From the NCBI GenBank assembly GCA_000092065.1, contig CP000591.1: 64,000 nt of DNA; one strand, 5' to 3'. Below the pieces are notes generated by a model. That model was given only the letters and a program-made list of their open reading frames with translations, ran no database searches and was not told where the DNA came from. Position numbers and translations under genes: made by a program. This DNA comes from Ostreococcus lucimarinus. Taxonomy: Eukaryota. This document shows positions 5,613 through 64,000 of this stretch, piece after piece (positions within the stretch are counted from its first letter, which is position 1; each line of letters starts with the position of its first letter).

Positions 5613-6530
5613 TCAGGTGACGCGAACGATGAAATCGCACAGCGGGGCGAGTTGATTTTTCATCGCGCTGACGCGGTCGCACACGACGCCCGGGCGTCTC
5701 GAGGCTTTGGTAAAGGCGTCGAACGTGAACGTTTCCCCGGGTCTTTGACAGAGCGTACGGTACTTGTCGCGCTTTTTCTTTGCCACGGCGTTCGCGCGGC
5801 GCTGAGCGGCGGTGATTGCCATTTCGGGGAGGGAGCCGGCGTCGGCGGCGCGCGCCGCGTCGATTTCTCGTTCCAGACGTTTTCGAATGAAATCCGGTGG
5901 GTGCGCCGTGAGCTTCTCGCACTTGTTGCACGCGATCATGAGTGGGATCTTGCGCGTTTGAAACGATTCGTCGCTCAGGATGTCGAACAGGAACTTGGCG
6001 ACTTCCTTGCGTTCGCTCGCGAAGGACACGCTGTCCACGACGAAGACGACGGCGCGCGCCCGCGCCAACTCTCGCAGCGCTTCCTTGCGCAGCTTGGCGT
6101 GTCCTGGAACGTCCACGACGCGCACGTGCGACTTTGTCACCTCTCGCCCTCGGCTATTCTTCCCGACGACGACCGCGTCGCCGCACTCGTTCGCCTCGAC
6201 GCTCGTCGTCGTCCTGAAACGCTGCTCTCCGTACTTCAACCCCTGCCACAGCGCCGTCTTCCCGCAACCTTTACCGCCGAGCAGCAACACCGCGGGTTTA
6301 TACGTCTTCGAACGCGAGCCCGGACCGCTCGCGAGGGCGGCGAAGGCGCCACCGACGCCGAAAACGACGCGGAAAGCGACGACGATGGCCAGGAGCGTGA
6401 CGATCGCGACGAGCGCGTGCGCGGCGTTGGCGTCGTCGACGGCCAAACGGTGCGAGAGGACATCTCGCGCAAACGTGTGTGAGGTGTTGTACGCGTCGAC
6501 GGCGCGCGCGGTGAGGGCGGCGACGTCCAT
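5613..6530 (-). CDS. SRPRB: Signal recognition particle receptor beta subunit (Arf-like GTPase with an N-terminal transmembrane anchor)
   Basis: N-terminal hydrophobic segment ALVAIVTLLAIVVAF, then a P-loop LLLGGKGCGKTAL, DVPGH, NKCE. ATG at 6530. Confidence 0.75.
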   Translation of the reverse strand: MDVAALTARAVDAYNTSHTFARDVLSHRLAVDDANAAHALVAIVTLLAIVVAFRVVFGVGGAFAALASGPGSRSKTYKPAVLLLGGKGCGKTALWQGLKYGEQRFRTTTSVEANECGDAVVVGKNSRGREVTKSHVRVVDVPGHAKLRKEALRELARARAVVFVVDSVSFASERKEVAKFLFDILSDESFQTRKIPLMIACNKCEKLTAHPPDFIRKRLEREIDAARAADAGSLPEMAITAAQRRANAVAKKKRDKYRTLCQRPGETFTFDAFTKASRRPGVVCDRVSAMKNQLAPLCDFIVRVT

Positions 6531-35764: not shown

Positions 35765-35824
35765 GGCGGCGTCGCCGCCGTCGTCGCGCGTCGCCGTGTC
35801 GCGCGATCGTCGAGCTGTCGCCGC

Positions 35825-36039
35825 GTCGCGATTTCAAATTTCGTGGCGTCGGCGCCGCGCGCGGTGCGATTTCGAGGGTCGGCCTCGCGCACCGCGCACT
35901 GTTTACCCATACGCGCGTCGCGATTTCAAATTTCGTGGCGTCGGCGCCGCGCGCGGTGCGATTTCGAGGCGTCGGCGCCGCGCGCGGTGCGATTTCGAGG
36001 GTCGGACCTCGCGCACCGCGCACTGTTTACCCATACGCG
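35825..36039. repeat. Tandem duplication (about 92 bp unit x2, the second copy carrying an internal 31-bp re-duplication) in the primase/36129-gene bidirectional promoter
   Basis: Unit gtcgcgatttcaaatttcgtggcgtcggcgccgcgcgcggtgcgatttcgagggtcgg[c/a]cctcgcgcaccgcgcactgtttacccatacgcg at 35825-35916 and 35917-36039. Each copy carries TTTCAAATTTCG and CACTGTTTACCCATACGCG. Confidence 0.85.
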
Positions 36040-36128
36040 TCAACGCGCGGACGCGGCGCGACGCGCGACGCGCGCGCGCACGTCGCGACGCGCGCGCGAC
36101 CGCGACCGCGACCGCGCGGCGACGCGCC

Positions 36129-41567: not shown

Positions 41568-43421
41568 TTACGAGTCTTGCTTCTTAAGAAGCGGGAACGC
41601 GATGACGTCGCGAATCGACGGCGAATTCGTGAGAAGCATGACGAGACGATCGACGCCGAGACCCATACCCGCGGTCGGGGGCATGCCGTACTCGAGCGCG
41701 GCGACGAAATCTTCATCCATTTCGACGTCGTACGCCTCGTCTTCGAGCGCTTTGAGTTCGTCTTTACCACTCGCCGCCGCCGCTTCGCGCTGCGCCGCGC
41801 TCGTTTTCGCGTGCGTCACCATCTGCGCCTCGAGGCGTTTACGTTGATCGATGGGATCGGTCAACTCGCTGAACGAGTTCGCGAGCTCGCGACCGACGAC
41901 GAAGAGCTCGAACCGTTCGGTGACTCCCGGTTTACTACGGTGCGGTTTCGCGAGAGGAGAAATCTCGAGCGGGTGGTCGAGAACGAACGTGGGCTGAATC
42001 AAATCGCTTTCGCACGCGGCTTCAAACATTTCGTTCAGCACGTGACCGACGCTCGCCGCCAACTTGACACCTTTGATGCCTTCCCCAGCTTTCTTAGAGT
42101 GCGCCTTGAGCGCGGGAATTGCCGCTGCCTTGGCTCCTTCCAAGTCATCCCCGAACGCCATGACGTCTACGCCCGTGGCTTCCTTGACTAGATCGTTCAT
42201 CGGCGCCCGGCGCCACGGGCGTTGGCTCAAATCAATCGTCACGTCGCCGTAAGGAATCGTCAGCGTCCCGCACGCCTTCATCGCGCATCGACAAATCATC
42301 TCTTCCGTGAGCTCCAACATGTCCGTGACGTCGGCGTACGCCTGATACACTTCTATGGACGTAAACTCCGGGTTGTGTCGCGTGCTCAAGCCTTCGTTGC
42401 GAAACACGCGTCCGAGCTCGTACACGCGTTCGAAACCGCCGACGACGAGTCGCTTGAGATGCAACTCGGTGGCGATACGAAGCGTGAGCTGCATGCCGAG
42501 CGCGTTGTGGAAGGTGTTGAAGGGCTTCGCGTCCGCGCCGCCCGCTTGCGTGTGCAGCACGGGCGTCTCCATCTCCAAAAACCCGTCGTCGTCGAGCATT
42601 CGACGAATGGTGGAGATGATGTTCGAGCGCGCCTTGAACGTGTTTCGCACCTCGGGCGACACGATCAAGTCCACGTATCGCTGCCGGTATCGCTTCTCCA
42701 CGTCCTGCAATCCGTGCCACTTATCCGGCAACGGCAGCAGCGCCTTTGTCAACATTTGCACCTTGGCCGGCACGATGGACAGCTCCCCCTTATCGCTCCT
42801 TTTCACGCTCCCGTGCACGCCGATGATGTCCCCGACGTCCACGAGTTCCGTGATCATCTCAAACGCCCCCGGGCTCGTCTCATCCAACCGTTTCTTATCG
42901 CAAAACAACTGCACGCTTCCCCGTTCGTCCACCAGCGACAAAAACGCCAACTTCCCGAACGACCGCTTCGCCATCACCCTTCCGCACACCGCCTCGCTCG
43001 AGCCCTCGATCTCGACCCCGTTCTCCAATCCTTCGTGTTCCCTCTGCAGCGCATCGCAATATTTCGTGCGATCGAACCGGTAATCGAATCCCCGCTGTCC
43101 GAGCGCGCCGAGCGCGTCCAGCTTTTGCGCGCGCAGCGCCTTGACCTCCTCGGGCGAGCTCGTCACCCCGCTCGCGTCTCGTCCGCCGCCCTCGCCGCGC
43201 TTTCGATTCCCCGCGCCGCCGTCGCGCTTTTTATTCGTTCCCGCGTCGCTCGCGCGCGCGCGCGTCCTCGTCGTCGCGCCTCGTCGTCGCGTCGTCGCCG
43301 CCGTCGCCGTCGCGCGCGCGCTCTCGCGCTCGCTCGCGCGCGTCGACGCCCGCGGGCGCGCCGCGAGCGACGCGCGCGGCGTCGAGACCGTCCTTCGCGC
43401 GAACGCGCGCGCGAGCAGCAT
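41568..43421 (-). CDS. KARS: Class II lysyl-tRNA synthetase with an N-terminal organellar-type presequence
   Basis: [10 protein letters not shown]...[23 protein letters not shown] and motif 3 [13 protein letters not shown]. An anticodon-binding OB fold is upstream. The R/A/S/T-rich N-terminal 90 aa resembles a transit peptide. Confidence 0.85.
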
Positions 43422-47277: not shown

Positions 47278-49095
47278 TTAATTCGGGTCGTCGTCGTCGG
47301 CGGAGGGCGGTGATTCGGCGCGCGCGAGCTCGATGGCGTCCATGTCTTCGCTGACTCGGCGCAGGGCGGCGCGCATGCGCTCGGCGTAGGAGACGCCGGA
47401 ATCGTCGTCGGCGGCGTCGTCGTCGGCGGCGTCGTCGGCGGCGAAATCGTTCACGGCGAGCAAGACCTCGTCCACGGCGGTGGATTCGTCGATGTCTTTC
47501 ACGCGCTTGACCTTTCGAACGACGTCTTGGAATAAGACGTTGACGTCGCGCGATATCGATGGGTCGCGCCGCATGGCGTCGACGACGTCGCGACCCATGC
47601 GTCGCTTTTTCCTCGCCAACATGTTTTTAAACGCGGCGGCTTGCGCCCTGCGAACGGTGTCCGGATCGGGCGGGCCGGCGCCGCGCGCGGGCGCGGCGTC
47701 GCCGAGCGCGCGCTCGATGAAACGCGTCATCGTGTTCCGTTGATGGATGATGTACATGGCGTCCGCGACGTAGCCGCCGACGATCGGGGCGAACACGCCT
47801 CCGGTGACGACGAAGGCGAGCGATTGCGAGACGAAGAGCAATCGACTGCGGCTGCCGTCCAAAAAATCTTTCACGCTCTTTCCGCGCAGGATGTTTTCGA
47901 ACGCGCGCGTCTCCGCGACGTTCGGCGCTTCGTTTGCGGACAGCGGCGACGACGACTCGTCGTCCGCGGCGGCGTCGGGCTTCTTCTCCCAAAACTTGAG
48001 CGACGGTTTCTTCGTCTTTTCGGCGCTCGCCTTGATGTCGTCCTCGCTCACCGGCACCAACTTTTGTTTGCCCGTCACCTTGTTCCGCTCCACTCTGAAC
48101 GCCTGCACGCGCGTTTGTCTCTGCACGCGTCGCAAACGCGCCTCGAGGACGAGGTACACGCCGAACGCCGCCGCCGCCTTGGCCGGGGCGTCGACTTCGT
48201 ACGGCTCGAACCCCGCCTCGACGGCGCGGTCGGCGAGCCACTTGGCGAGCAAACCCAAAACCACTCCGCGCTCGAGCATCTCGTCCGCGACTCGCGCGGT
48301 GAGCGCGACGGACGCGTCCATCCAAAACGGCATGCTTCTGCACGGATTATTCAGCGTCTCCTCTTCCTGATACCTCGACAGCGGCTCAAAGTACCGCTCG
48401 AGCGCCGACGCCTCGCGAACCTCCCCCGACGCCTCCTCGCGCGCCTCGTTCGTCGCCTCCGCGCGCGCGGTCCAATCGACCCCCATCACCAACGCGTCGT
48501 AAATCGCCGTCGGCGCCGCGAACGCCAATCCGATCGACGCCGCGCGCGCGAAATCCATCGCCTCGCCCCCCGTCCCGGCGCCGAAATCGCCAAACGCGCT
48601 CGCGCCCGCGGCGTACGCCAAGCACACCGCCAGCGTCCCTTTCACCCCTCCCACGGCCACCAACAGCGACAGATACTCTCGCATCATCGCCTTCTCCGGC
48701 GTTTCCGACGACGACGCGTCCGCGCCGTCGGCATCCGATTCGCGCGGCGTCTCGCCGCGTCCCGACGCCGCCGTCGAATCCCCGCGCGCGCGCGTCGTCG
48801 ACCTTCGCGCCGCCGACGCCCGGTCCATCGCCTCGGTCGCGCCCGCGCTCGACGCGCGCGCGTCCTCGTCGCCCTCCGTCGCGTCGTCGTCGTCCAGCGA
48901 CTCGCCGAGGACGCTGCGCAGCGCGTCGAACGTCCCGCTCGGCGACGCCGACGCGAGCGACTCGTCCTCGTCGTCCTCGCGCGTCGCGCGCGCGCGCCGG
49001 TTCGCGACGCCGCGCGCGCGGCGCGCTCGACGCCGGCGCGCGCTCGGGCGTCGCGCGAGCGCGCGCGCGGGCGCGCGCGTCGCGCGCGGCGCCAT
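47278..49095 (-). CDS. Hypothetical membrane protein with an R/A-rich presequence (organelle-targeted?)
   Basis: ATG at 49095 (MAPRATRAPARALARR...). Hydrophobic segments (EYLSLLVAVGGVKGTLAVCLAYAAGASAF..., LLFVSQSLAFVVTGGVFAPIVGGYV). The far upstream part of ORF 47278-50004 is antisense to the SH3BP5-like gene and was discarded. Confidence 0.55.
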   Translation of the reverse strand: MAPRATRAPARALARRPSARRRRARRARGVANRRARATREDDEDESLASASPSGTFDALRSVLGESLDDDDATEGDEDARASSAGATEAMDRASAARRSTTRARGDSTAASGRGETPRESDADGADASSSETPEKAMMREYLSLLVAVGGVKGTLAVCLAYAAGASAFGDFGAGTGGEAMDFARAASIGLAFAAPTAIYDALVMGVDWTARAEATNEAREEASGEVREASALERYFEPLSRYQEEETLNNPCRSMPFWMDASVALTARVADEMLERGVVLGLLAKWLADRAVEAGFEPYEVDAPAKAAAAFGVYLVLEARLRRVQRQTRVQAFRVERNKVTGKQKLVPVSEDDIKASAEKTKKPSLKFWEKKPDAAADDESSSPLSANEAPNVAETRAFENILRGKSVKDFLDGSRSRLLFVSQSLAFVVTGGVFAPIVGGYVADAMYIIHQRNTMTRFIERALGDAAPARGAGPPDPDTVRRAQAAAFKNMLARKKRRMGRDVVDAMRRDPSISRDVNVLFQDVVRKVKRVKDIDESTAVDEVLLAVNDFAADDAADDDAADDDSGVSYAERMRAALRRVSEDMDAIELARAESPPSADDDDPN

Positions 49096-49119
49096 GATGT
49101 GACACCGCGACGCGGCAGC

Positions 49120-50328
49120 ATGGCGCCGACGCCGCGCGCGGGCGAGCGCGACGGCGCCGACGCGGCGCGCGACGACACCGCGCGCGCGCCGGCGCGCGAG
49201 AGGGAGACGGCGAAGCCGGCGCCGCGCGAGGAGGGCGCGAACGATGGCGTCGGTGCGATGCGCGAATTCAACGACGACGACGAGGACGCGACGACGACGG
49301 CGACGGCGGCGACGCGCGACGCGATCGAGCGCGAAACGACGGCGTCGACGACGCCGGTGACGCCGGAGACGCGCCTGCTGGGCGAACGCCTGGACGCGCT
49401 GGACGAAGAGGCGGAGCTGACGGTGGAGTCGTTTCTGAGGGCGAAGTTCGACGCGGCGACGACGACGACGACGGATTTCGAGAGCGCGTCCGGACGGTCG
49501 GAGAGCGATGCGGGCGGAAGAGGCGAACGCGTGGACGACGCGGAGACGCTGTACGCGCGAGATACGGATTTGGAGGAGGCGGAGGAGGTGGACCCGCGCG
49601 TGGGCGACGCGCTGGACGAGTTGAACGATTCCATGACGGAGTGCAACGGGTTGGAAAACGCGCTGCAAGAGGCGAGGAAGGCGCGCTCGAGGACGCAAAC
49701 GGTGGCGAGAAAGAGACTGGATTCGGTGGCGGCGAGGTTGTCGTCGAGCGTCATGACGGCGGTGCCTGTGTTTCACAAGCGAGCGTTGGCGCAGCTGTAT
49801 CAGGTGCGAAGCATCGAGGCGCTGCGGGCGTACGAGAGCGCGCACGACGCGCACGAACGCGCGAAGAAGCGGAACGATGAGCTCGAGCGCGAGCTCGTGG
49901 CGAGTAGCGGTAAAGTAGACATCGAGCTCATGGAGGTGTGCGCGGAGGCCATGCGCGAGGTTTCTGAGACGACGGCGGTGAAGCTCCGAGCGACCGAGGT
50001 GCACGAGCGCAACACGCGACGCGCCGTCGAGGCCACCGCCGAAGCGGCCGGTCTCGAGCGCGAGCGCACGAGCGCGGTGAAAAAGGCTCTCCCGTGGTTC
50101 AACGCTAAAGCTTTGGGCGAGGCGGAGTGCGCGCAGGCGGACGAACGCGTGAGCGAATTAAAACTCGCCGTTCGCCAAGCCAAGGCGAGATACGAAGCCG
50201 CGCTCCGCGCGTTGAACGAAATCAGCGAGGAAGTGCACGCCCGTCGCGAGGCGCGCAAGCTCGCGCGCGAGGCTTCAGCTCTAGATATCAGCGCCGTTCC
50301 CGAGATCGAACGGGAGGAAGGCGTGTAA
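49120..50328 (+). CDS. SH3BP5-like coiled-coil protein (Rab11 GEF family)
   Basis: EEVDPRVGDALDELNDSMTECNGLENALQEARKARSRTQTVARKRLDSVAARL ... AKARYEAALRALNEISEEVHARREARKL parallels SH3BP5 (EEVDPRIQGELEKLNQ..., LNEISEEIHERR...). The upstream part of ORF 47641 is antisense to the preceding gene. Confidence 0.7.
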   Translation: MAPTPRAGERDGADAARDDTARAPARERETAKPAPREEGANDGVGAMREFNDDDEDATTTATAATRDAIERETTASTTPVTPETRLLGERLDALDEEAELTVESFLRAKFDAATTTTTDFESASGRSESDAGGRGERVDDAETLYARDTDLEEAEEVDPRVGDALDELNDSMTECNGLENALQEARKARSRTQTVARKRLDSVAARLSSSVMTAVPVFHKRALAQLYQVRSIEALRAYESAHDAHERAKKRNDELERELVASSGKVDIELMEVCAEAMREVSETTAVKLRATEVHERNTRRAVEATAEAAGLERERTSAVKKALPWFNAKALGEAECAQADERVSELKLAVRQAKARYEAALRALNEISEEVHARREARKLAREASALDISAVPEIEREEGV

Positions 50329-54761: not shown

Positions 54762-56594
54762 CTACTTACGGTCGTACGCAGTGCGCTCGAACTTGTTGCC
54801 GAGGACGGCGTACGCTTTTTGAGCGAGTTGAAACCGCTCGGCGGCGCGCTTCTTGGCCGAGGCGTCGCCGGCGACCTTGTCGGGATGCGTCTCGAGCGCG
54901 ACGAGCCGAAACGCGGCTTTAATTTCTTCCTCCGTCGCGTGCCCGAGCTTGGCGTCGAGGCGAAGGGTCTTGTAGAAGCCGTGGATGTCGCGAGAGAAAC
55001 CGGGATGGCGTCCGCTGGGGGCGCCGTGCGCGTCGTCGCCGCGCGAACGCTTCCAGTTGGCGCCGTACTTGCGCTCCATCTCCGCCTCGCGTCTCGCGGC
55101 TTCGTCCGCGAGGTGCGCGCGCTCTTCCATCTCGTGTCGCATCTCTTGACGCTCGCGGAATCGGAATATTTGTGTCTCTAGAATGCTGTACGCCCACGCG
55201 CGACGTTTATCCGGATCCCAGCGCATCTTGTCCGTCTCTCGCCATCGTCGCCATTCGGCGTCGTCGCGTCGTCGCTGGACGCTCTCGTCCATCCACTCGC
55301 TGTTCCCTACTGATCGCATCGCACGCGCAAACGCGCGTTCCTCGTCGTGCACGCGCACGGCGTCAATTTTATCTTGACGCATCTTCGGCACCTGACGCGC
55401 GAGCACCGCCGCGCCCGCCGCCGCGACGGCGGACGCCAACGCGCCTTGGCCGAGAAAAAAATACGCGCTCTCGGGCCACACGTACGCGGCGATACTGGCG
55501 GGAATCGCGACCGCGCTGAACGCGAGGGCGCGCGCCTTGTGGTCACAAATCAAATCATCGCTCACGACGAGGCCCGTGACGCCGCACACGACGGCTTCGC
55601 GCGGCTGTTGAATAATCTTGTTTGCGTTTTCGTCGACGACGTACCCGTGCTCGAAGGACACGTACCACACCGGATGATAGACCGCGTACACGTCTCTCGA
55701 CAGCGTCGTGAACTCGACGCATATGTCTCGCGTCGACGTCGCGCCCTTGTGTTTCTTCATCAGCTCCTCCGAGGCCTCCGCGCGCGCCACATCTCGCATG
55801 CGCGCCGCGGCGAGCGACAACGCCATGCTTCGCCTCATCTCAAACGGCTCGACCACCGTCCCTTCCGGCGCCTTCGCGCGCGCGCGCGCCCAATCCATCG
55901 CGTCGAAATCGTTCGGATCAAAGCTCACGCACGCCCCGGGCAGCAAACGATCCACGAAATCCCTCCTGTGCGCGAAACTCGCGCATATTTGACTCGCCCT
56001 CGTCGTCGCGTCGAACCGCGTCGTCTTCGCCGCCGTCCCGCTTCGCACCCAACTCCCCCCCACCTCCACCGATCCCGCGCACGACGTCTCCGCCGTGACG
56101 TCGAACACCCAATACGGCGCGTACGCCGCCCGAAACGTCGGTTCGCGCGCGCCGTCCCGGCCGCGAACGCGCCGCGGCCGCGCGCCTCGACTTCGCAACC
56201 ACCGCCGCAGGGCGTCCCGCGCGTCGCGCTCGTCGCGCTCGAACGCGCGCCCTCGCGCGCCGCGCGGTCCCGACGCGCGTCCCGCGCGCGCGTCGCGCGT
56301 CGCCGCCGTCGTCGAGTCGCGCGAGTCGTCGCGCGTCGCGCGGCCGCGCCGCGCGTCGAATCCCCATCGCGTCGCCGTCGTCGCGCGTTCGCGCGCGAGC
56401 GCGCGCGTCGCGGCGGCGGCGACGCGACGCGCGCGCGCCCGCATCGCGCGCCGTCGCCTGGCGCCGTCGCCGCGCCGCGCCGGCCGTCGCGCCGCGCGCG
56501 CGTCGCGCGCGGGCGTCGCGCGCGTCGGCACCGCCAACCCTCGCGTCACTACATACCGCGAAACACACGCTAAACACGCGCGCGCGACGCGCAT
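54762..56594 (-). CDS. DnaJ (J-domain) protein with a C-terminal J domain and an R-rich presequence
   Basis: C-terminal DIHGFYKTLRLDAKLGHATEEEIKAAFRLVALETHPDKV...AAERFQLAQKAYAVLGNKFERTAYD (HPD motif). First ATG at 56594; the ORF-track start at 56636 is GTG. Confidence 0.7.
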   Translation of the reverse strand: MRVARACLACVSRYVVTRGLAVPTRATPARDARAARRPARRGDGARRRRAMRARARRVAAAATRALARERATTATRWGFDARRGRATRDDSRDSTTAATRDARAGRASGPRGARGRAFERDERDARDALRRWLRSRGARPRRVRGRDGAREPTFRAAYAPYWVFDVTAETSCAGSVEVGGSWVRSGTAAKTTRFDATTRASQICASFAHRRDFVDRLLPGACVSFDPNDFDAMDWARARAKAPEGTVVEPFEMRRSMALSLAAARMRDVARAEASEELMKKHKGATSTRDICVEFTTLSRDVYAVYHPVWYVSFEHGYVVDENANKIIQQPREAVVCGVTGLVVSDDLICDHKARALAFSAVAIPASIAAYVWPESAYFFLGQGALASAVAAAGAAVLARQVPKMRQDKIDAVRVHDEERAFARAMRSVGNSEWMDESVQRRRDDAEWRRWRETDKMRWDPDKRRAWAYSILETQIFRFRERQEMRHEMEERAHLADEAARREAEMERKYGANWKRSRGDDAHGAPSGRHPGFSRDIHGFYKTLRLDAKLGHATEEEIKAAFRLVALETHPDKVAGDASAKKRAAERFQLAQKAYAVLGNKFERTAYDRK

Positions 56595-56671
56595 AAATCC
56601 AGTCCGACCGCGGTGATTCGTGACGCTCGACAACACCCTCGCGATTCCGCGACGCGACGCGGTTCGCCGAG

Positions 56672-58312
56672 ATGGCGCGACGACGCGGACCGCGACGCCG
56701 CGGGGACGGCGACGACGACGAGTCGACCCCGCTCGTCGCTCGCGGGCGCGGGTCGACGACGCCGGCGACGGTGACGCGGGTGACGCTTTTAGTGTTGGTC
56801 GCGATGGGCGTCGTCGGCGCGTCGACCGCGCCGCGTCGACGATTCTCGGCGCGAGTCGGCGTTTTCAAGAAGGGATTGAAAACGGTGACGAGCGCGGCGA
56901 GCGGGGTGGCGAGCGCGTGGTCGAAGACGGGCGACGCCGCGTGGACCAGGGCGGAAAATCTCTCTAAAAACGCGCGTAAAAAGGTTGGCGCCGAGTTGAC
57001 GGCGGCCATGCAATCCGGGCACCAAGAGATTTTTAAGCAATACGACGAGGCGTCGGGGTGGTCCCAGCAAGCGGCGAATCAAGTTGCGGGAGAGGCGACA
57101 GAACTCGGGGACGACGTCGAGAAGACGGCGAAGATGATTGCCGAGTTCCTCGACGGTTATAAATGCGACATCGGCGTCAAAGACTTGAAGAAGACCGTTG
57201 ACGATATTAAAAACGCGGTCGGCTCAAACTCTTTGAAATCCATGTACGACAAGGTGACGGGATCTCCGAATAGGTATTTCAAGAACATGGACGACTTGGC
57301 TTGCCAGATGATGTGGGATACGTCTGGATTCGCGCAAGCTGCATCCGTGATGGAGGCTTTCATCGAGTTGGCCAAGGATAAGTGTCCGCTCGTCGTCAAG
57401 GGTTCGAGTAAGCCCGCTTTCACCTATGGTTTCTCCGTCTCGGGTGACATTGTCGGCGTCGTACTCAGCGCCGGTCGCTCTGGCGAAGTCGGTCTCGGCA
57501 TCGACTTGTCTGGCCAAAAGTTTTGCTACGCTGGCCATTGCGTCTACTCGGGCTTCACCTTGGATGTACCTCAAGTGGGTGTGGACTTCAACGTCGTTGT
57601 CTCCGGTTGGAAGTCGATGTCAGACGTGTCTGGTCGGTCGAACATGATGGCTTTCGGCTTGAGTGGCGAGTTACCAGACTCCGCCATCCCAGATTTTGAC
57701 GTTGATCTCACGCTCGTCACCGGCGGCGCCAAGATGAGCAACATATTGGGCGTCTCCAAGGCGTTAGGCGTCGGTCAAGACGCGTCTGAGCTGCCGGTGA
57801 CGGGCAGCTTCGCCAAGGGTACGTGTATAACTCCTTGGTGCGTCACGTATGAAGGAGGTTCGTGCGCCGGTGATCCGGGAGAAGGGCGCGATTTCAAGTG
57901 CTATATCTCCAGACATTCGTCGTTCCGGCTTCCTGCTCCCTTTGCGGGTCAAACCGTTCAAGACCGATGGGATTACTACAATCGCAAATCGGAATCGGGC
58001 AAAAAGATGCGCAAAGAAATCGAATCGAATAATGACAAGTATCCGATTTACGAAGGGTGCGAGTTCGGCGACGCCGAGATGGAGTGTTACTACGACAAGT
58101 TCTACGCCAAGGCTCATCCAAAGGATTACGACGACATCGAGAAAAAAGTGAACAAAGAATCTTGCAACGGCTTCTCCTCTGACTCTGAATGCTCCAAGAA
58201 TCGCCGCGAGAGGATCATCGAGAAGAAGGTGAGCCGCGCCAAGGCTGATTTCTTCAAAGATAAGGGTGGCTGGAAAAACGAACCGACTTCTTACGCGAAG
58301 TGCGGCATTTAA
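56672..58312 (+). CDS. Hypothetical type II membrane / secreted Cys-rich protein
   Basis: ATG at 56672. N-terminal charged segment, then TM VTLLVLVAMGVVGAS. Many Cys in the ectodomain (CDIGVKDL, CQMMWD, CYAGHCVYSGF, CITPWCVTYEGGSCAGDPGEGRDFKCY...). Confidence 0.55.
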   Translation: MARRRGPRRRGDGDDDESTPLVARGRGSTTPATVTRVTLLVLVAMGVVGASTAPRRRFSARVGVFKKGLKTVTSAASGVASAWSKTGDAAWTRAENLSKNARKKVGAELTAAMQSGHQEIFKQYDEASGWSQQAANQVAGEATELGDDVEKTAKMIAEFLDGYKCDIGVKDLKKTVDDIKNAVGSNSLKSMYDKVTGSPNRYFKNMDDLACQMMWDTSGFAQAASVMEAFIELAKDKCPLVVKGSSKPAFTYGFSVSGDIVGVVLSAGRSGEVGLGIDLSGQKFCYAGHCVYSGFTLDVPQVGVDFNVVVSGWKSMSDVSGRSNMMAFGLSGELPDSAIPDFDVDLTLVTGGAKMSNILGVSKALGVGQDASELPVTGSFAKGTCITPWCVTYEGGSCAGDPGEGRDFKCYISRHSSFRLPAPFAGQTVQDRWDYYNRKSESGKKMRKEIESNNDKYPIYEGCEFGDAEMECYYDKFYAKAHPKDYDDIEKKVNKESCNGFSSDSECSKNRRERIIEKKVSRAKADFFKDKGGWKNEPTSYAKCGI

Positions 58313-58777
58313 GACGCGCGTTCCACCGCGGGCGCGCGCGCCGCACGATTTTGCCGACGACGCTGTAAATAATATTGAAATCATCGCTCGCGTCCGCGCC
58401 CCCGTCGTCGTCGTCGTCGCCTTTCCCCGCGTCCGTCCGCGTCCATCCTTCGTCGCGGCGCGCCTGCATTCACAATAAATTCGTCATGATGCCGTTACGC
58501 ACAGTCAGAATACGCCATTTGACGCGTATAACGCGCATGTCCGCACATGGCGCAAACGCCGAGGCGATTAGGGCACGCGCGATCGACGCGAATTATGCGC
58601 ACCGCACATTCCCGCGCCGCGCGCGACGAACGCGCGGATTCGCGCGACGACGCCGTCGACGCGCGCGTTCGTGGGAGACGCCTCGCGGCCGGGCACCGTT
58701 CGAAACGATCGCGAACGCGCGACGCGAAAAACGGACGTCGATCGCGTTCGCGACGGCGGAATCATAAGAGTCGTTTG

Positions 58778-58799
58778 TTTGAATTTCGGATTCGAATCC
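58778..58799. promoter_or_regulatory. TTTGAATTTCG element abutting a perfect 12-bp palindrome GGATTCGAATCC, about 290 bp upstream of the chromatin-protein gene
   Basis: tcgtttgTTTGAATTTCGGATTCGAATCCgagcg. The same 11-mer occurs in MCM2 intron 1 and, as TTTCAAATTTCG, twice in the primase promoter. Confidence 0.4.
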
Positions 58800-59078
58800 G
58801 AGCGACGCGAGCGCGCGCTCTCGGCGAGCGGGAGCGGCGGGCGAGCGAGAGCGAATGGCGAGGAGTGCGTGGACGCGGCGAGGCGATGCGAGGCGCGCGA
58901 GAGCGAGGACGAGGGCGCGGGGGGGGAAGGACGGGGCGCGCGCGACGACGCGCGTCGCGCGCGACGCGCGCGAAGAAAGACGACGACGACGCGACGACGA
59001 CGACGCGACGACGACGACGATCGCGGGACTGACGAGGGCGTTGATGTGCGCGCGCGCGCAGGCGTCGGGAGCGGCGCG

Positions 59079-60023
59079 ATGCCGGCTTCGGCGGAAGATT
59101 CCATCGGGTGGTACCTGAGCTTGTACTGGCCGGCGATGAATAAGGAGTTCAAGGGCGTGGTGCAAAAGTACGATCACGATTCCAAGCATCACACGGTGAA
59201 GTGGGATAACGCGCCGAAAGGGAGCGATGGCGTGACCGAGGTTGATTTGACCGAGGGCGAGTTGACGTGGTTGAAGGCGCCGGAGAAGCCCGTGAAGAAG
59301 GCCGCGAAGGGCAAGCCGGCGGCGGCGAAAGCGAAACCCAAAGCGTACAAGGAGTACGATGCCTTGGAGACCATGGATGATTTGGAAGCGCGATTCACGG
59401 GCAAAACGACCAAGGCGGTGGCGTTTCAAGTGTTGAAGAACAGCGGCGTAAACGGGATGACGCTTCAAGAAATAGTCGACGAGTCGCAAAAGCTTGGGCT
59501 TCGGGACTGGACGCAGTGCAAACAGCCAAAGACGACCATCAACGTGTGCGTGAGTCAAGATTCGGCGTTTGTGAAGATTTCTCCCGGACGCGTGGGTTTG
59601 CGCATCAACGGCGCGCAAACGAGAGACGCTTCGCAAGAACCCAAGCACGTGAAGGCGTCGGGCGCTTCGAAAAAGCGTGGGCGTCCGCCGAAGACGGGCG
59701 AGGCCAAGCCGAAAAAAGTGCAACGTCAAGAACCGCAACACTGGGAGCGCAAGCCTCCGATTGATTTGTCGATTGAGGTGTACACGAGCAACAACACGCA
59801 CGTGACCAACGCGCCAATCTCAGTTGCGTACAACGTTACCATTAAGGCTTTGAAAAAGGCCATCTCGAATAACACCAAGGGCATGCTCAAGCCGCACTAT
59901 CAGCAACTTTACCACGATAACCGAAACATCGGTATGGATGAGGATGCGTTTTTGGTGCACGCGGTTCGCCCGCACAAATTTGAGCGCACGCTCGATTTGA
60001 AGCTCGTCATCAGCGATCAGTAG
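59079..60023 (+). CDS. Chromatin-associated protein: Tudor-like domain + HARE-HTH domain + AT-hook + C-terminal ubiquitin-like region
   Basis: IGWYLSLYWPAMNKEFKGVVQKYDHDSKHHTVKWDNAPKG...VTEVDL (Tudor-like). AVAFQVLKNSGVNGMTLQEIVDESQKLGLRDWTQCKQPKTTINVCVSQDSAFVKISPGRVGLR (HARE-HTH). KKRGRPPKTG (AT-hook). ATG at 59079; the upstream part of ORF 58671 is not coding-like. Confidence 0.65.
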   Translation: MPASAEDSIGWYLSLYWPAMNKEFKGVVQKYDHDSKHHTVKWDNAPKGSDGVTEVDLTEGELTWLKAPEKPVKKAAKGKPAAAKAKPKAYKEYDALETMDDLEARFTGKTTKAVAFQVLKNSGVNGMTLQEIVDESQKLGLRDWTQCKQPKTTINVCVSQDSAFVKISPGRVGLRINGAQTRDASQEPKHVKASGASKKRGRPPKTGEAKPKKVQRQEPQHWERKPPIDLSIEVYTSNNTHVTNAPISVAYNVTIKALKKAISNNTKGMLKPHYQQLYHDNRNIGMDEDAFLVHAVRPHKFERTLDLKLVISDQ

Positions 60024-60166
60024 ACACTACAACAGTGACAGCGGTAACAGGCACATCATAGCCCGCGCGACAACACCAGGCGGAAATCTAATCATCGATC
60101 ATGTGTCGCGCGCGTTGTAAATCGAATATTCCATAAACGACTTCGTCTCGAGTTGAATTACAACGT

Positions 60167-61570
60167 CTACGCCGCGACAGCCATCATGCCGCGCAAAACG
60201 AGCTCGCGAAGCGCCCAAGTGGGCTTGGTGTACTTTCGCCCGTCTTTGGTGGTATACTCCTTATCCACCAACTGCATGGCCCAAAGGTAGTGGACGGATT
60301 GAATGTCGTCCTCGGCGCCCTCGACGACGGCGCCGGATTTGTCGCGAACGCAGTTGATTTGTTGGCAACTAAAAGTCAGCACGACGAGGGGCTCGTTTTC
60401 CATCAAACGAACTTCCATGAGCTCGACTTCACTTAAATCTAAGATCCTCGGATCCACGTGCTGTCCTTCGTGCTTCCAAAGGTTCATCTGCCCGGATAAC
60501 CGCTCGAGCATTTCGCTCGAAATATTCGTTTGCTTCAACGCCTCGACGTCGCCCTTGAGGTAGGCGCCGAGAACTTTGGGAATATCTCTGCGCACTTCGG
60601 CGATAAAATCGTTAATGTTAAACATCGGATCTCGCTGACGAATCATGCGATACGCCTCGCCTTGCTCGGTCTCGCTGAACAGGTTATCCTGAAAGTCTTG
60701 AATGCGGTGCACCACGGGCGAGTCGCTCGTCTCCCATCGTTCGCGCATATCCTCCGCCAGCTCCGCCCCCTTGGCGTACGGCGCGGTCTTCTTCAACCCC
60801 TCGAGCTTATCGAACGCGCTCGCGATCCCGAGCTTGGACTTCACCCCTCCCCACAACTTTCCGAACGCGCTCGGTTTCGGCGCCGCCGTCGTCGCCACCG
60901 CCGTCGTCCCGTCGTACGGTTCAAACATCGCCTCATCGTACCCCGCCGCCTTCCTTCGCTCCGCCGCCGCGTCCCCCGGATCCATCATCGCCAACCGATA
61001 CTCCTCCTTCACCGCATCGATCGCCATCGCCGCGAATCCGCTCGGCGTCGTCCACGACTTTTTCCCCCCCGCCCTCGCGTCGCCCGTCGCCGCCGCCGCC
61101 GCCCGTCGTCCCGCCTTCCGCGCCGCCTCGCCCGCCTCCCTCGCCGCGTCGTCCACCGCGTCGACGTCGATGCCCGACGCTCTCGCGCGCGCCCGCATCT
61201 CCGCCGCCGCCTCCGCCGCGTACGTCGTCGCCCGCGCGCGTAAATCATCGAATCCCCGCGCGTCCGATCGCGTCGACGTCTTCCCCGTCGCCTCGCTCGC
61301 CGCGTCGCGCGGCGCGCGCGAGCGGCGCGTCGCGTCGCCGTCGTCGCGCGTCGCGTCGCGCGCGCGCGCGTCGTCGCGCTTGAGCGCGCGCGCGGACGCG
61401 CGAAGCGACGACATCGCGCGCGCGCGCGTCGCGTCGGCGCGCGTCGTCGCGCTCGAACGCGGCGCGACGCGCGCGAGCGCGCTCGAGCGCGACGCGACGC
61501 GCGCGAGCGACGCGTCGCCGAGCGCGCGCGCGCTCAGGCGCGCGAGCGCGCGTCGCGCGCGCGTCGCCAT
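60167..61570 (-). CDS. TIM44: Mitochondrial import inner-membrane translocase subunit TIM44
   Basis: C-terminal Tim44 domain (FIAEVRRDIPKVLGAYLKGDVEALK...HEGQHVDPRILDLSEVELMEVRLMENEPLVVLTFSCQQINCVRDKSG...VHYLWAMQ). R/A-rich presequence from ATG 61570 (MATRARRALARLSARALG). Confidence 0.8.
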   Translation of the reverse strand: MATRARRALARLSARALGDASLARVASRSSALARVAPRSSATTRADATRARAMSSLRASARALKRDDARARDATRDDGDATRRSRAPRDAASEATGKTSTRSDARGFDDLRARATTYAAEAAAEMRARARASGIDVDAVDDAAREAGEAARKAGRRAAAAATGDARAGGKKSWTTPSGFAAMAIDAVKEEYRLAMMDPGDAAAERRKAAGYDEAMFEPYDGTTAVATTAAPKPSAFGKLWGGVKSKLGIASAFDKLEGLKKTAPYAKGAELAEDMRERWETSDSPVVHRIQDFQDNLFSETEQGEAYRMIRQRDPMFNINDFIAEVRRDIPKVLGAYLKGDVEALKQTNISSEMLERLSGQMNLWKHEGQHVDPRILDLSEVELMEVRLMENEPLVVLTFSCQQINCVRDKSGAVVEGAEDDIQSVHYLWAMQLVDKEYTTKDGRKYTKPTWALRELVLRGMMAVAA

Positions 61571-61609
61571 GGCGGCTCGAAGTGACGCGGCGACGCGGCG
61601 CGCACTTCG

Positions 61610-63157
61610 ATGCGCGCGCGCGCCGTCGCGCGATGCGCGCGGCGCGTCGTCGGCGCGGACGCGCGACCGGACGCGCGACCGCGACCGCGCGCGGCGTCGC
61701 GTCCGCGCGCTCAAGCGCGACGACGACGCGACGAGGACGCGCATCGCGCGACGGCGCGCGGCGGCGACGCGCGCGCGCTCGGCGCGCTCATGCGCTGGCT
61801 GCGCGCGCGCGGCGTCGAAGCGTCGCGCAAGACGCAGTTCGCGCGCGGACGCATGGGCGTCGGCGGCGTCGCGATCGAGGACATGGCGCAGGGGGAGGTG
61901 ATTTTCTCGCTGCGAATGCGAGACGACGACGACGCGCCGATCGCGCTGACGACGACGGAGGTCGAGAACGAGCGCGGACCGCTGCGAACGCTGGCGAAGA
62001 TGGTGAACGCGACGAGGCTGACGAGTAGGTACGCTGGGGTGATCGAGGACGAGTGGGGATTTCCGTTGGATTCGACGCGCGCGGCGACGCTGGCGCTGGC
62101 GCTGGCGCGGGAAGTCGAGCTGGGGGACGACGCGTACTGGCGCGCGTACGTCGATTTGTTGCCTCGAGAGGTGGATAGCTTGCAGATGTGGGACGATGAC
62201 GAGCTCGAGGCGCTGCAGGGGTCGAGATTGATCGAAAGGGCGCGGCGAAGACGCGCGCTGGTGCGACGGGAATACGAAGCGACGCGCGAGGCGTTGGGGG
62301 CGACGGCGCCGTCGTACGAGTCGTTTCGATGGGCGTACGCCACCGTGCTCGCGCGCGCGTTCGTGCTTCCAGATTTGAACTGCATGGCGCTGTTGCCGGG
62401 ATTAGATTTGTACAATTCCGCGCGCGACGCGGAAAAGTGTACGGTGGAGCGACTCGGGCACGTCGAAGACGACGACGACGAAGACGACGACGAGGACGTC
62501 GCGTTCGCGAACGAGGGCGAAGCGCAAGTCACGCTTCGCGTCGGTATCGGTGGCGCGGCGGCGGGAACGCAGCTGTTTCACGATTACGCCGACCACACCT
62601 CGGGCGGGGCGTTGCTCGAATTCGGTTTCGTGTACCACGGCGAACGCGAGCGAGGCTCGGGCGTGGACGCCGTCGAGACGAGTCTTGTGCGCGCGTACGA
62701 CGCACTCGACGCGCGTTCGCGCGCGTTTCTCGCCGAACGCGTGTTCGGTGCGTTCAACGTGCGCACCAGCCTGACGTTTGAGCTCTCGAACGTGGGTGGC
62801 GTGTACAAACCCGCCCTTCGCGGCGCCGCGTGCGTTCCGCTCGAAATGTGGCGCGCCGCGAGGGCGTTGGCGCTCTCGCCCGAGCGCGCGCTCCCGGCGT
62901 CGTTAGACGACGTCTTGGACGAAGACACCGAAATTCGAGCGCGTCGCATCATCCTCGACGCTCTCAAAGCCGAGCGCGCGCGCTACGCCGCGACGTCGAT
63001 CGAGGAAGACGTCCGCGCGCTTCGCCTCGCGCTCGACGCCGGCGCCGCCGCGCGTCGAACCGCCGCCGCGCTCGACGTGCGCGTCGGCGAGAAATCCCTC
63101 CTCGACGACGTCATCACCGATTTAGAAACGAACGCGCGACGCGCACGGCGCGGATAG
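61610..63157 (+). CDS. SET-domain protein-lysine methyltransferase (Rubisco LSMT / SETD3-SETD6-like) with an R-rich transit peptide
   Basis: ALMRWLRARGVEASRKTQFARGRMGVGGVAIEDMAQGEVIFSL...AYWRAYVDLLPREVDSLQMWDDDELEALQGSRL...FRWAYATVLARAF...LLPGLDLYN parallels LSMT (FWKWLQEEGV...TEGLGLVA...). ATG at 61610. Confidence 0.75.
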   Translation: MRARAVARCARRVVGADARPDARPRPRAASRPRAQARRRRDEDAHRATARGGDARALGALMRWLRARGVEASRKTQFARGRMGVGGVAIEDMAQGEVIFSLRMRDDDDAPIALTTTEVENERGPLRTLAKMVNATRLTSRYAGVIEDEWGFPLDSTRAATLALALAREVELGDDAYWRAYVDLLPREVDSLQMWDDDELEALQGSRLIERARRRRALVRREYEATREALGATAPSYESFRWAYATVLARAFVLPDLNCMALLPGLDLYNSARDAEKCTVERLGHVEDDDDEDDDEDVAFANEGEAQVTLRVGIGGAAAGTQLFHDYADHTSGGALLEFGFVYHGERERGSGVDAVETSLVRAYDALDARSRAFLAERVFGAFNVRTSLTFELSNVGGVYKPALRGAACVPLEMWRAARALALSPERALPASLDDVLDEDTEIRARRIILDALKAERARYAATSIEEDVRALRLALDAGAAARRTAAALDVRVGEKSLLDDVITDLETNARRARRG

Positions 63158-63213
63158 CTCTCGACGTGGTAAACTAGTAAACATATTTATTCGTACATCG
63201 CTCGACGGCGTCG

Positions 63214-63549
63214 TCACGCGCGCGCGTCGTCGTCGTCGTCGTCCTTCGCCTCCCCCCTCCCCTCCTCCGGCTCGTACTCCACGCGCAGCAGCGCCTCCAG
63301 GCTCTCTCGCTTATACATCAGCGCGTCCCGTTCCTTATCGATGTCCCACGCCTCGCTCGGGTCGTCCGTCCGTCGCCATCGCTTATTCTCCTCGACCCGT
63401 CGTCGCTCATCCTCATCCCAGATCTCATCGTCGTCTTTCTTCGACCACGCGCGCGCGATCGTCGACGTCCCGGTCCCGCGCGCGCGCGCGATCCATCGCG
63501 GCGCGCGCGCGACGACGCGGCACCGCGGCTTCGTCGTCGTCGGCGGCAT
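63214..63549 (-). CDS. Small hypothetical protein (R-rich presequence, acidic C-terminus)
   Basis: 111 codons, ATG at 63549. No recognisable domain. Its promoter region carries E2F-like sites. Confidence 0.4.
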   Translation of the reverse strand: MPPTTTKPRCRVVARAPRWIARARGTGTSTIARAWSKKDDDEIWDEDERRRVEENKRWRRTDDPSEAWDIDKERDALMYKRESLEALLRVEYEPEEGRGEAKDDDDDDARA

Positions 63550-63634
63550 CGACGAGTGCGGCGGCGTCGACGCGCGCGCGGATCGCGCGGCGCGCGTCGA
63601 AAATCGGTCGCGTACTGTTTGCCCACACGCGACG

Positions 63635-63647
63635 TTTTCGCGCCAAA
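63635..63647. promoter_or_regulatory. Canonical E2F-type site TTTTCGCGCCAAA (copy 1)
   Basis: Matches TTTSGCGC and the DHFR-type TTTCGCGCCAAA element. It lies between two divergent genes. Confidence 0.5.
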
Positions 63648-63702
63648 TTCATTGACATGTCGCCTCGCACATCGGTCGCGGACTGTTTGCCCATACGCGA
63701 CG

Positions 63703-63715
63703 TTTTCGCGCCAAA
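63703..63715. promoter_or_regulatory. Canonical E2F-type site TTTTCGCGCCAAA (copy 2)
   Basis: Identical 13-mer in the second repeat copy, 12 bp upstream of the ATG at 63727. Confidence 0.5.
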
Positions 63716-63726
63716 TTCATTGACAA

Positions 63727-64000
63727 ATGTCGCCTCGACGACGCGGACGCGCGACGACGACGCCGGCGCCGACGCGAGAGCGCGTCGCGACGACGGACGC
63801 GACGGCGCGACGGGAGGCGGCGATGACGGCGCGCGCGACGCGCGAGCGCGACGACGGCGCGCGGGCGACGACGGACGAGGGCGGCGCGCGGGCGACGACG
63901 GACGAGGATCGCGCGCGGCTGACAAAGTATTGGTTGCGACGACGGTGCTCGACGGGATCGCACGCGAGCGAGGCGACGGAGGTGGGGATGCTGACGGGAG
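63727..64000 (+). CDS. 5' end of a gene continuing beyond the window (unknown product)
   Basis: ATG at 63727, open to the window end (MSPRRRGRATTTPAPTRERVATTD...RARLTKYWLRRRCSTGSHASEATEVGMLTG). It lies immediately downstream of the E2F-containing direct repeat. Confidence 0.4.
   Translation, partial: MSPRRRGRATTTPAPTRERVATTDATARREAAMTARATRERDDGARATTDEGGARATTDEDRARLTKYWLRRRCSTGSHASEATEVGMLTG

Follow-up and report, generated by a model that had tools for sequence, protein, structure and literature searches.

Head-to-head gene pairs with closely spaced start codons in Ostreococcus lucimarinus

Three divergent gene pairs and their conservation

The stretch analyzed here, called the window throughout, comprises 64,000 nucleotides (nt) of nuclear DNA from the picoplanktonic green alga Ostreococcus lucimarinus CCE9901 (contig CP000591.1), as identified by the product of open reading frame (ORF) 56672..58312, which matches XP_001420276.1 exactly. 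An initial annotation of this DNA had pointed to head-to-head gene pairs whose start codons lie only a few dozen bases apart, and three such pairs, named A, B and C below, are the subject of this report. The GC content of the window is ~62%, with local peaks of 70-78% that coincide with the head-to-head junctions. Scans of the whole window with Rfam and ARAGORN revealed no RNA genes, and none was concealed within the spacers. The genes and spacers of the three pairs are listed here, with protein lengths in amino acids (aa).

47278..49095, minus strand: pair A minus gene; 605 aa, hydrophobic segments, arginine-rich (R-rich) N-terminus; start at 49095
49096..49119, no strand: pair A spacer, 24 nt between the start codons
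49120..50328, plus strand: pair A plus gene, SH3BP5-like; 402 aa; start at 49120, alternative Met47 at 49258
60167..61570, minus strand: pair B minus gene, TIM44; 467 aa; start at 61570 in GCCGCCATGG context
61571..61609, no strand: pair B spacer, 39 nt, and also 39 nt in strain L003
61610..63157, plus strand: pair B plus gene, Rubisco-LSMT/SETD3-like methyltransferase (SET below); 515 aa; R-rich N-terminal extension; start at 61610
54762..56594, minus strand: pair C minus gene, DnaJ-domain protein; 610 aa from the first ATG, N-terminus uncertain
56595..56671, no strand: pair C spacer, 77 nt; an AT-rich ATAAAT adjoins the DnaJ ATG
56672..58312, plus strand: pair C plus gene; 546-aa predicted protein, residue-for-residue XP_001420276.1 / A4S4J6

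Bidirectional gene pairs are usually defined operationally by 5' ends less than 1 kb apart. The genes of all three pairs lie on opposite strands in divergent orientation, and their start codons, separated by 24, 39 and 77 nt, fall within that distance. The spacings given in the initial annotation for the two tightest pairs agreed with our count: 24 nt lie between CAT 49093-49095 (the minus-strand ATG, 49095) and ATG 49120-49122 in pair A, and 39 nt lie between CAT 61568-61570 and ATG 61610 in pair B. Pair C is indeed close, and the 78 bp quoted for it is the coordinate difference, with 77 nt between the triplets (CAT 56592-56594 and ATG 56672).

Most of the gene names were confirmed by domain matches. 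The SH3BP5-like protein matched PF05276 over aa 155-382 (156.4 bits against a curated cutoff of 25, E=1e-45), TIM44 matched PF04280 (107.1 bits against a curated cutoff of 29.6, E=1e-30), and a DnaJ domain was found at the C-terminus of the pair C minus protein. The gene described as SET probably encodes a relative of Rubisco-LSMT and SETD3, as judged by matches to PDB sequences (pea LSMT, 1mlv_A, E=1.1e-9; SETD3, 6e-5); it had no Pfam SET match, and its Pfam Rubis-subs-bind score of 21.2 bits was just under the cutoff of 21.6. No Pfam family matched the pair A minus-gene protein. In an exact protein look-up only gene 56672 corresponded to an NCBI protein, and the other first-ATG models were found only in metagenome and Logan gene calls.

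For comparison, loci were taken from the annotated genome of O. tauri, from several metagenomic lineages of Ostreococcus and from 23 JGI contigs. Wherever both flanking genes could be found at an Ostreococcus locus, pair A was head-to-head; this covers 18 loci in addition to the window. The O. tauri genome (GCA_000214015.2, contig CAID01000011.2) carries the same two genes in the same divergent orientation, where the 605-aa gene ends at 5970 and the gene annotated as 'SH3-binding 5' begins at 6001, placing the annotated starts 31 bp apart with a 30-nt spacer. The spacers of the two species, however, could not be aligned, and in O. tauri an extra ATG lies in frame, 24 nt upstream of the SH3BP5 start as annotated. 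Among close strains, the spacer measured 24 nt in the window, 25 nt in L003 and L009-L013 (one additional G) and 38 nt in L015 (an additional 14 nt). The two ATGs and the sequence directly beside them were fixed. Indels that are not multiples of three were found in the spacer only, so the spacer is non-coding and the two ATGs mark its edges.

Pair B was head-to-head in L003 and L032-L035, and the starts lie 83-229 nt apart in the other Ostreococcus lineages. The TIM44-SET pairing is not kept in Bathycoccus, where TIM44 faces a diacylglycerol kinase gene 863 bp away. Relative to L003 (~85% regional identity), both first methionine (M1) codons and ~18-25 nt of coding-side flank were conserved and the spacer ends were kept, whereas the spacer center and the R-rich N-terminal coding parts had diverged. 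Comparison of orthologous loci, a check proposed in the initial annotation, thus found the four start codons of pairs A and B to hold in related Ostreococcus sequences. The small distance between the starts is conserved and does not arise by chance.

The start-codon case for pair C is weaker. Ortholog calls for the DnaJ gene range from 397 to 610 aa, with 475 aa in O. tauri, and the codon score for aa 1-130 was about -5.6 (the scale is given in the next section). Only the O. lucimarinus lineage has gene 56672 between the DnaJ gene and a HARE-HTH gene. In other lineages (L004, L005, L032-L035), its ortholog is located elsewhere, beside SNO/FMN_dh genes, and DnaJ directly faces HARE-HTH. Pair C is therefore a lineage-specific juxtaposition. 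The gene had also been tried as an anchor for finding all three pairs in other species and proved useful for L003 only. The L003 metagenome contig matches the window at 98-100% identity between 46.6 and ~56.15 kb and then falls suddenly to 66-97% over the remainder (56155-64000); the break coincides with the junction of DnaJ and 56672. Possible causes are a boundary between strains, produced by recombination or separating haplotypes, and a chimeric metagenome contig.

Start codons of pairs A and B

The lengths of the ORFs were of little help in placing the starts. The pair A ORFs (47278..50004 on the minus strand and 47641..50328 on the plus strand) are ~900 codons each and overlap over nearly their whole length. 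Both frames stay open through each other since they are codon-aligned in antisense and stop codons are rare, and ORF extent in this GC-rich genome therefore cannot define the starts. The codon-aligned antisense register depends on the spacer being 24 nt long and is shifted in strains where it measures 25 nt. Codon usage was scored with a model trained on the window itself, as was the gene map. In 46-codon windows, coding sequence gave a mean of +8.3 (standard deviation 4.7) and intergenic sequence a mean of -9.2, with 0.7% of intergenic windows at or above 10.7; from ~0 to -5, coding and non-coding windows overlap.

In the pair A minus gene, the methionine that follows M1 is M90; the sequence upstream of it includes a block that is conserved (DAL.SVLGES.DDD, aa 54-68), and the segment from aa 39 to 89 scored +15.3 in frame. 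M90 is absent in strain L015, and no other in-frame ATG occurs upstream, up to 50157. M1 at 49095 is therefore required, barring an intron. The O. tauri ortholog is likewise 605 aa long.

A missed upstream exon or intron would make the visible ATGs internal and leave the real 5' ends non-adjacent. Ostreococcus does have some introns (PMC4378021), but nothing positive speaks for this explanation. It is very improbable, because the curated, RNA-seq-informed O. tauri annotation has both pair A genes uninterrupted with starts at the 31-bp distance, and because the upstream DNA on each side is wholly taken up by the coding sequence of the partner.

The initial annotation had named a downstream start, MREFNDDDED (Met47, 49258), as an alternative for the SH3BP5-like gene. 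Codon usage disfavors it without eliminating it: M1-M47 scored +10.7 in frame, the other five frames scored -4.5 or lower, and the L015 version scored +6.9. The net indel from M1 to M47 was +9 nt, and the ATG at 49120 is conserved in all close strains. Conservation of the protein begins only at ~aa 82, which had made Met47 a live alternative. These data favor translation from 49120, and Met47 may be used as well.

The ATG at 61570 was described as the first of TIM44, which is not so, since a further in-frame ATG lies upstream at 61744. That ATG is absent in L003 and falls within coding sequence of SET, which leaves 61570 as the best start. The TIM44 N-terminus reads MATRARRALAR, and orthologs in L032 and L033 begin with MTSRVARAIAR and MRARATRAIAR, giving a common pattern of MxxRxxRAxAR. 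Met53 (61414) is also conserved and might serve as an alternative start alongside the favored 61570. The codon score of M1-M53 was ~0 and tied with one antisense frame, and the GC content at third codon positions was 0.96. An imperfect tandem duplication of ~30 nt (LARVASRSSA / LARVAPRSSA) is present in the N-terminal coding region of this gene (61450-61510, minus strand).

The SET frame contains a stop at 61584-61586 and opens at 61587. Met61 is replaced in L003, and net SET indels relative to L003 are multiples of three. Alignment to pea LSMT places the beginning of the fold near aa 60-80. Given the stop, the loss of Met61 and the position of the fold, M1 at 61610 is the only conserved candidate. 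Its N-terminal frame was the best of the six, although the score was near zero. In L032-L034, the SET/LSMT ortholog was called as two ORFs (e.g. 390 + 182 aa), which points to an intron, to a frameshift or to an N-terminal part that is non-coding in those lineages.

Several observations weigh against these start assignments and, with them, against the interpretation of the pairs given in the following section. In the pair A minus gene, TIM44 and SET, the R-rich N-terminal segments all scored ~0 to -5, which is no higher than the 5th percentile for coding windows. The M1-M47 segment of SH3BP5 differs from L015 at ~25% of sites with no third-position bias, and the comparison gave 20 nonsynonymous and 2 synonymous codon changes; non-coding DNA would do likewise. 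Judged from these changes, the segment is a freely evolving acidic tail with a near-neutral amino-acid rate. A third-position substitution test of the R-rich N-termini was uninformative because of too few changes or excess divergence. Elsewhere in the window, the minus gene 41568..43421 and a plus-strand PPPDE/Peptidase_C97 gene (43420..) have first ATGs that share a single CATG. A start at Met44 (43549) is more likely for the PPPDE gene and agrees with the 217-aa O. tauri protein. The first-ATG rule thus over-calls at 43420, and starts chosen in this way can be wrong.

If the arginine- and alanine-rich 'presequences' were GC-rich non-coding DNA mistaken for protein, the real starts would be Met47 of SH3BP5, Met53 of TIM44 and Met61 or Met82 of SET, and the distance between true starts would be ~160-400 bp, an average value for this genome. 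The low scores of the R-rich segments, the over-call at 43420 and the lack of protein-level constraint in SH3BP5 M1-M47 would all fit. So would the models of metagenome callers, which gave a 359-aa (Met47-type) SH3BP5 and a 415-aa (Met53-type) TIM44, and the first ATGs of SH3BP5 orthologs elsewhere, which lie in segments without coding signal (L021, -3.7; L024, 0.0). We nevertheless consider such over-calling unlikely. SH3BP5 M1-M47 carried an in-frame coding signature in two diverged strains. The absence of M90 in L015 and the coding-like block upstream of it speak for M1 of the minus gene, and the absence of Met61 in L003, together with a fold that requires residues from ~aa 60, does so for SET. 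All four M1 codons and their flanks were conserved amid diverging sequence, with frame-breaking indels only in the spacer. Finally, homologs of TIM44 and LSMT are organelle proteins that require N-terminal targeting peptides.

Upstream ATGs and transcription starts

Both pair A starts lie within CATG and the TIM44 start lies within CCATGG, and these palindromes place an ATG on the opposite strand. The resulting features, one of them an upstream ORF (uORF), are as follows.

49094..49102, plus strand: ATGATGTGA, a 2-codon mini-uORF 17 nt before the SH3BP5 ATG, from the CATG palindrome at the start codon of the minus gene
49119..49121, minus strand: ATG arising in the CATG of the SH3BP5 start; located 26 nt upstream of where the minus gene begins; 145-codon out-of-frame ORF
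61569..61571, plus strand: ATG from the CCATGG at the TIM44 start; 41 nt upstream of the SET start; 110-codon out-of-frame ORF

A leader that crossed the start codon of the partner would therefore gain an upstream ATG in three of the four genes of pairs A and B. The SET leader past 61569 would meet GCCATGG, an ATG in strong context that L003 shares, with an ORF of 115 codons there. The leader of the pair A minus gene past 49121 would meet GCCATGC and its 145-codon out-of-frame ORF. For SH3BP5, a leader past 49094 would meet ATGATG, which forms the 2-codon uORF in the reference; in L003-type strains the same upstream ATGs extend the main ORF in frame, and in L015 they open an overlapping ORF of 57 codons that is out of frame. 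Since the relation of these upstream ATGs to the main ORF varies freely between near-identical strains, they are probably not present in the mRNAs. Together with the upstream AUG that each crossing leader would add, this suggests that transcription begins inside the spacers.

According to the initial annotation, the divergent transcripts must either initiate within the 5' regions of each other or overlap in antisense. The upstream ATGs favor a third option, in which both transcription start sites lie inside the spacer and the leaders are very short. Because only 24-39 nt of non-coding DNA separate the coding regions, each promoter must fall within the 5' region of the partner. The geometry supports the sharing of a bidirectional promoter, as had been claimed; a single regulatory region may drive both genes of a pair.

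Base composition near the start codons was examined in 29 genes of the window. From -300 to +200 of the ATG, GC was 0.70-0.73 with 22-24 CpG per 100 nt, and beyond +600 GC was ~0.60 with 13-14 CpG per 100 nt. The first ~200 coding bases look like CpG-island promoter DNA. The 5' coding ends are also the fastest-evolving parts of the genes, with 80-85% identity to L003 compared to 94-97% in gene bodies. In O. tauri, N6-methyladenine peaks and 5-methylcytosine dips right at the ATG (bioRxiv 10.64898/2026.07.10.737489), a pattern that fits transcription starts near start codons.

Taken together, the findings make it probable that pairs A and B are genuine conserved divergent pairs whose called starts are in all likelihood real and which are transcribed from within or at the edges of the spacer. 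The gene identities, the conserved arrangement, the non-coding spacer and the layout of the upstream ATGs are shown by the data, and from the sequence we infer the positions of the transcription starts and the sharing described below. Transcription of both partners would begin inside the spacer or at its edges, and the spacer would contain both transcription start regions and both leaders. The leaders would be very short, no longer than ~25 nt for either gene of pair A and ~40 nt for SET, with any antisense overlap confined to the spacer and amounting to a couple of dozen bases at most. The promoter DNA would sit in the first codons of the partner, that is, in GC- and CpG-rich, fast-evolving N-terminal extensions of low complexity (arginine/alanine-rich in three genes and acidic in the SH3BP5-like gene), and two pre-initiation complexes would share or compete for the same DNA. 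A more specific version of this proposal is tentative. It posits a single composite core promoter, 24-39 bp wide, with both transcription start sites inside it and capped leaders of ~5-25 nt; the recruiting sequences would be embedded in, and co-evolve with, the N-terminal codons of the partner, and because both pre-initiation complexes could not be in place at once, the two partners would fire alternately.

Longer transcripts that overlap in antisense are a possible but doubtful alternative. Here, each transcript would start tens to hundreds of bases inside the coding sequence of the partner, the 5' untranslated regions (UTRs) would be complementary, and each mRNA would carry the upstream AUG from the palindrome of the partner, tolerated by leaky scanning or reinitiation. 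The promoter-like GC and CpG composition, which reaches ~200-300 nt into the coding regions, is consistent with this. So are the region upstream of TIM44, which lacks an ATG over 174 nt, and pair C, which has no upstream ATG within 200 nt on either strand. Reinitiation would be feasible after the 2-codon uORF of SH3BP5 in the reference strain, which ends shortly before the main ATG. The upstream AUGs of the pair A minus gene and SET, however, are in good context (GCCATGC and GCCATGG) and open ORFs of 110-145 codons that run out of frame over the real start. Moreover, the relation of the pair A upstream AUGs to the main ORF shifts among strains that are more than 90% identical, which would be unexpected for translated leader elements.

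Three further points count against transcription from within the spacers. ATG is rare in DNA of 75-78% GC, so the lack of upstream ATGs at TIM44 and pair C carries little weight. Overlapping UTRs prevented RNA-seq assembly in O. tauri (PMC4378021), and such overlap would suit longer, overlapping leaders at least equally well. The published statement, though, does not distinguish 5'-5' from 3'-3' overlap, and the overlaps documented in Micromonas are convergent 3' ones (PMC4815162). Lastly, both the start sites and the start codons in use are deduced from DNA. In the literature library searched, no published 5'-end mapping for Ostreococcus was found that shows how such pairs are transcribed. 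Contig L002 (Logan) was considered as a possible transcript and rejected; it is identical to the genome, ends at GC-rich repeats and is silent on RNA ends.

No TATA-like element was found in the tight spacers of pairs A and B. Two other candidate elements were tried and set aside. TCACATC, beside the ATG of the pair A minus gene, fits the initiator consensus YYANWYY, but its frequency is about that expected by chance. GTGACNCNGCGACGCGGC is shared by the two spacers (49099-49116 and 61582-61599; 16 of 18 positions identical), but it was picked out post hoc, and at least two hits occurred in 12% of shuffles. It has no further copies in the window and is not conserved in the L003 pair B spacer, and the sharing is probably due to chance in CG-rich DNA.

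Gene spacing, known systems and significance

The first-ATG spacers at the nine head-to-head junctions of the window were ~24, 39, 77, 127, 184, 226, 240, 343 and 461 nt, where 127 nt is the corrected value for the apparent overlap of -2 at 43421/43420. The ~343-nt spacer (35765-36108) is long for a head-to-head junction and contains a direct repeat that reads ...RRRRARCDFEG... in one frame. The initial annotation had called the spacing an extreme case, a view that the genus does not bear out. The O. tauri starts of pair A are about as close as those in the window, and ~2,288 bidirectional transcript pairs involving 3,884 transcripts have been reported for that species (PMC4035068), in which intergenic regions are compact (bioRxiv 10.64898/2026.07.10.737489). 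Mean intergenic distances in Micromonas are 167-211 nt, and total UTR is only ~145 nt per transcript (PMC4815162). Very short spacing is thus common to the compact genomes of Mamiellales and the pairs described here, which are at the short end (24-39 nt compared to a window median of ~180 nt). The tight pairs are an ordinary product of the genome compaction known for the genus and not a new kind of system.

In microsporidia and nucleomorphs, compaction puts control elements inside the neighboring gene and has been proposed to preserve gene order (PMC2099475). The window resembles these genomes in its extremely reduced spacers and in the conservation of pairs across Ostreococcus. Overlap was demonstrated there with transcripts (Williams et al. 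2005, via PMC2099475), whereas the pairs in the window are known from DNA. The genomes also differ in kind, as those are reduced genomes of parasites and endosymbionts and Ostreococcus is a free-living, GC-rich alga.

Bidirectional promoters in animal CpG islands and shared nucleosome-free regions in yeast typically have start sites ~100-200 bp apart with non-coding DNA between them. Pairs A and B are similar in their divergent arrangement, GC- and CpG-rich junction and lack of a TATA-like element in the spacer, but here the whole non-coding interval is 24-39 nt. The mammalian TISU element (an initiator of translation for short 5' UTRs) supports accurate initiation where capped leaders have a median length of 12 nt, and the element also acts in transcription (PMC2518114). 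Messages of the TISU type have 5' UTRs of roughly 5-30 nt, a range that some leaders here may share, to judge from the upstream ATGs. Four of the six starts of the three pairs read ATGGCG, as in the TISU AAG-ATG-GCGGC-type element, while the upstream AAG was absent at all six (AGCATGGCGCC, ATCATGGCGCC, GCCATGGCGAC, TCGATGCGC, GAGATGGCGCG and TTTATGCGC). The nearest TISU-like match was GAGATGGCGCG at 56672. ATGGCG also occurs more often than any other start in the window, at 7 of 29 genes. The likeness to TISU is a lead and not a match.

The pairs provide a checked example of gene-start compression in a free-living eukaryote rather than a new phenomenon. They also illustrate how indels among close strains, taken together with codon-usage scores, allow first-ATG gene models in this GC-rich genome to be confirmed or, as at 43420, discarded. 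A modestly interesting question is whether such genes use ultra-short leaders from a composite promoter of 24-39 bp or leaders that overlap in antisense. Ostreococcus is transformable, and the pairs offer a convenient natural setting in which to examine how RNA polymerase II and the scanning ribosome deal with ~24 nt of non-coding DNA between genes. If the composite promoter is real, the same DNA would be both coding sequence and promoter.

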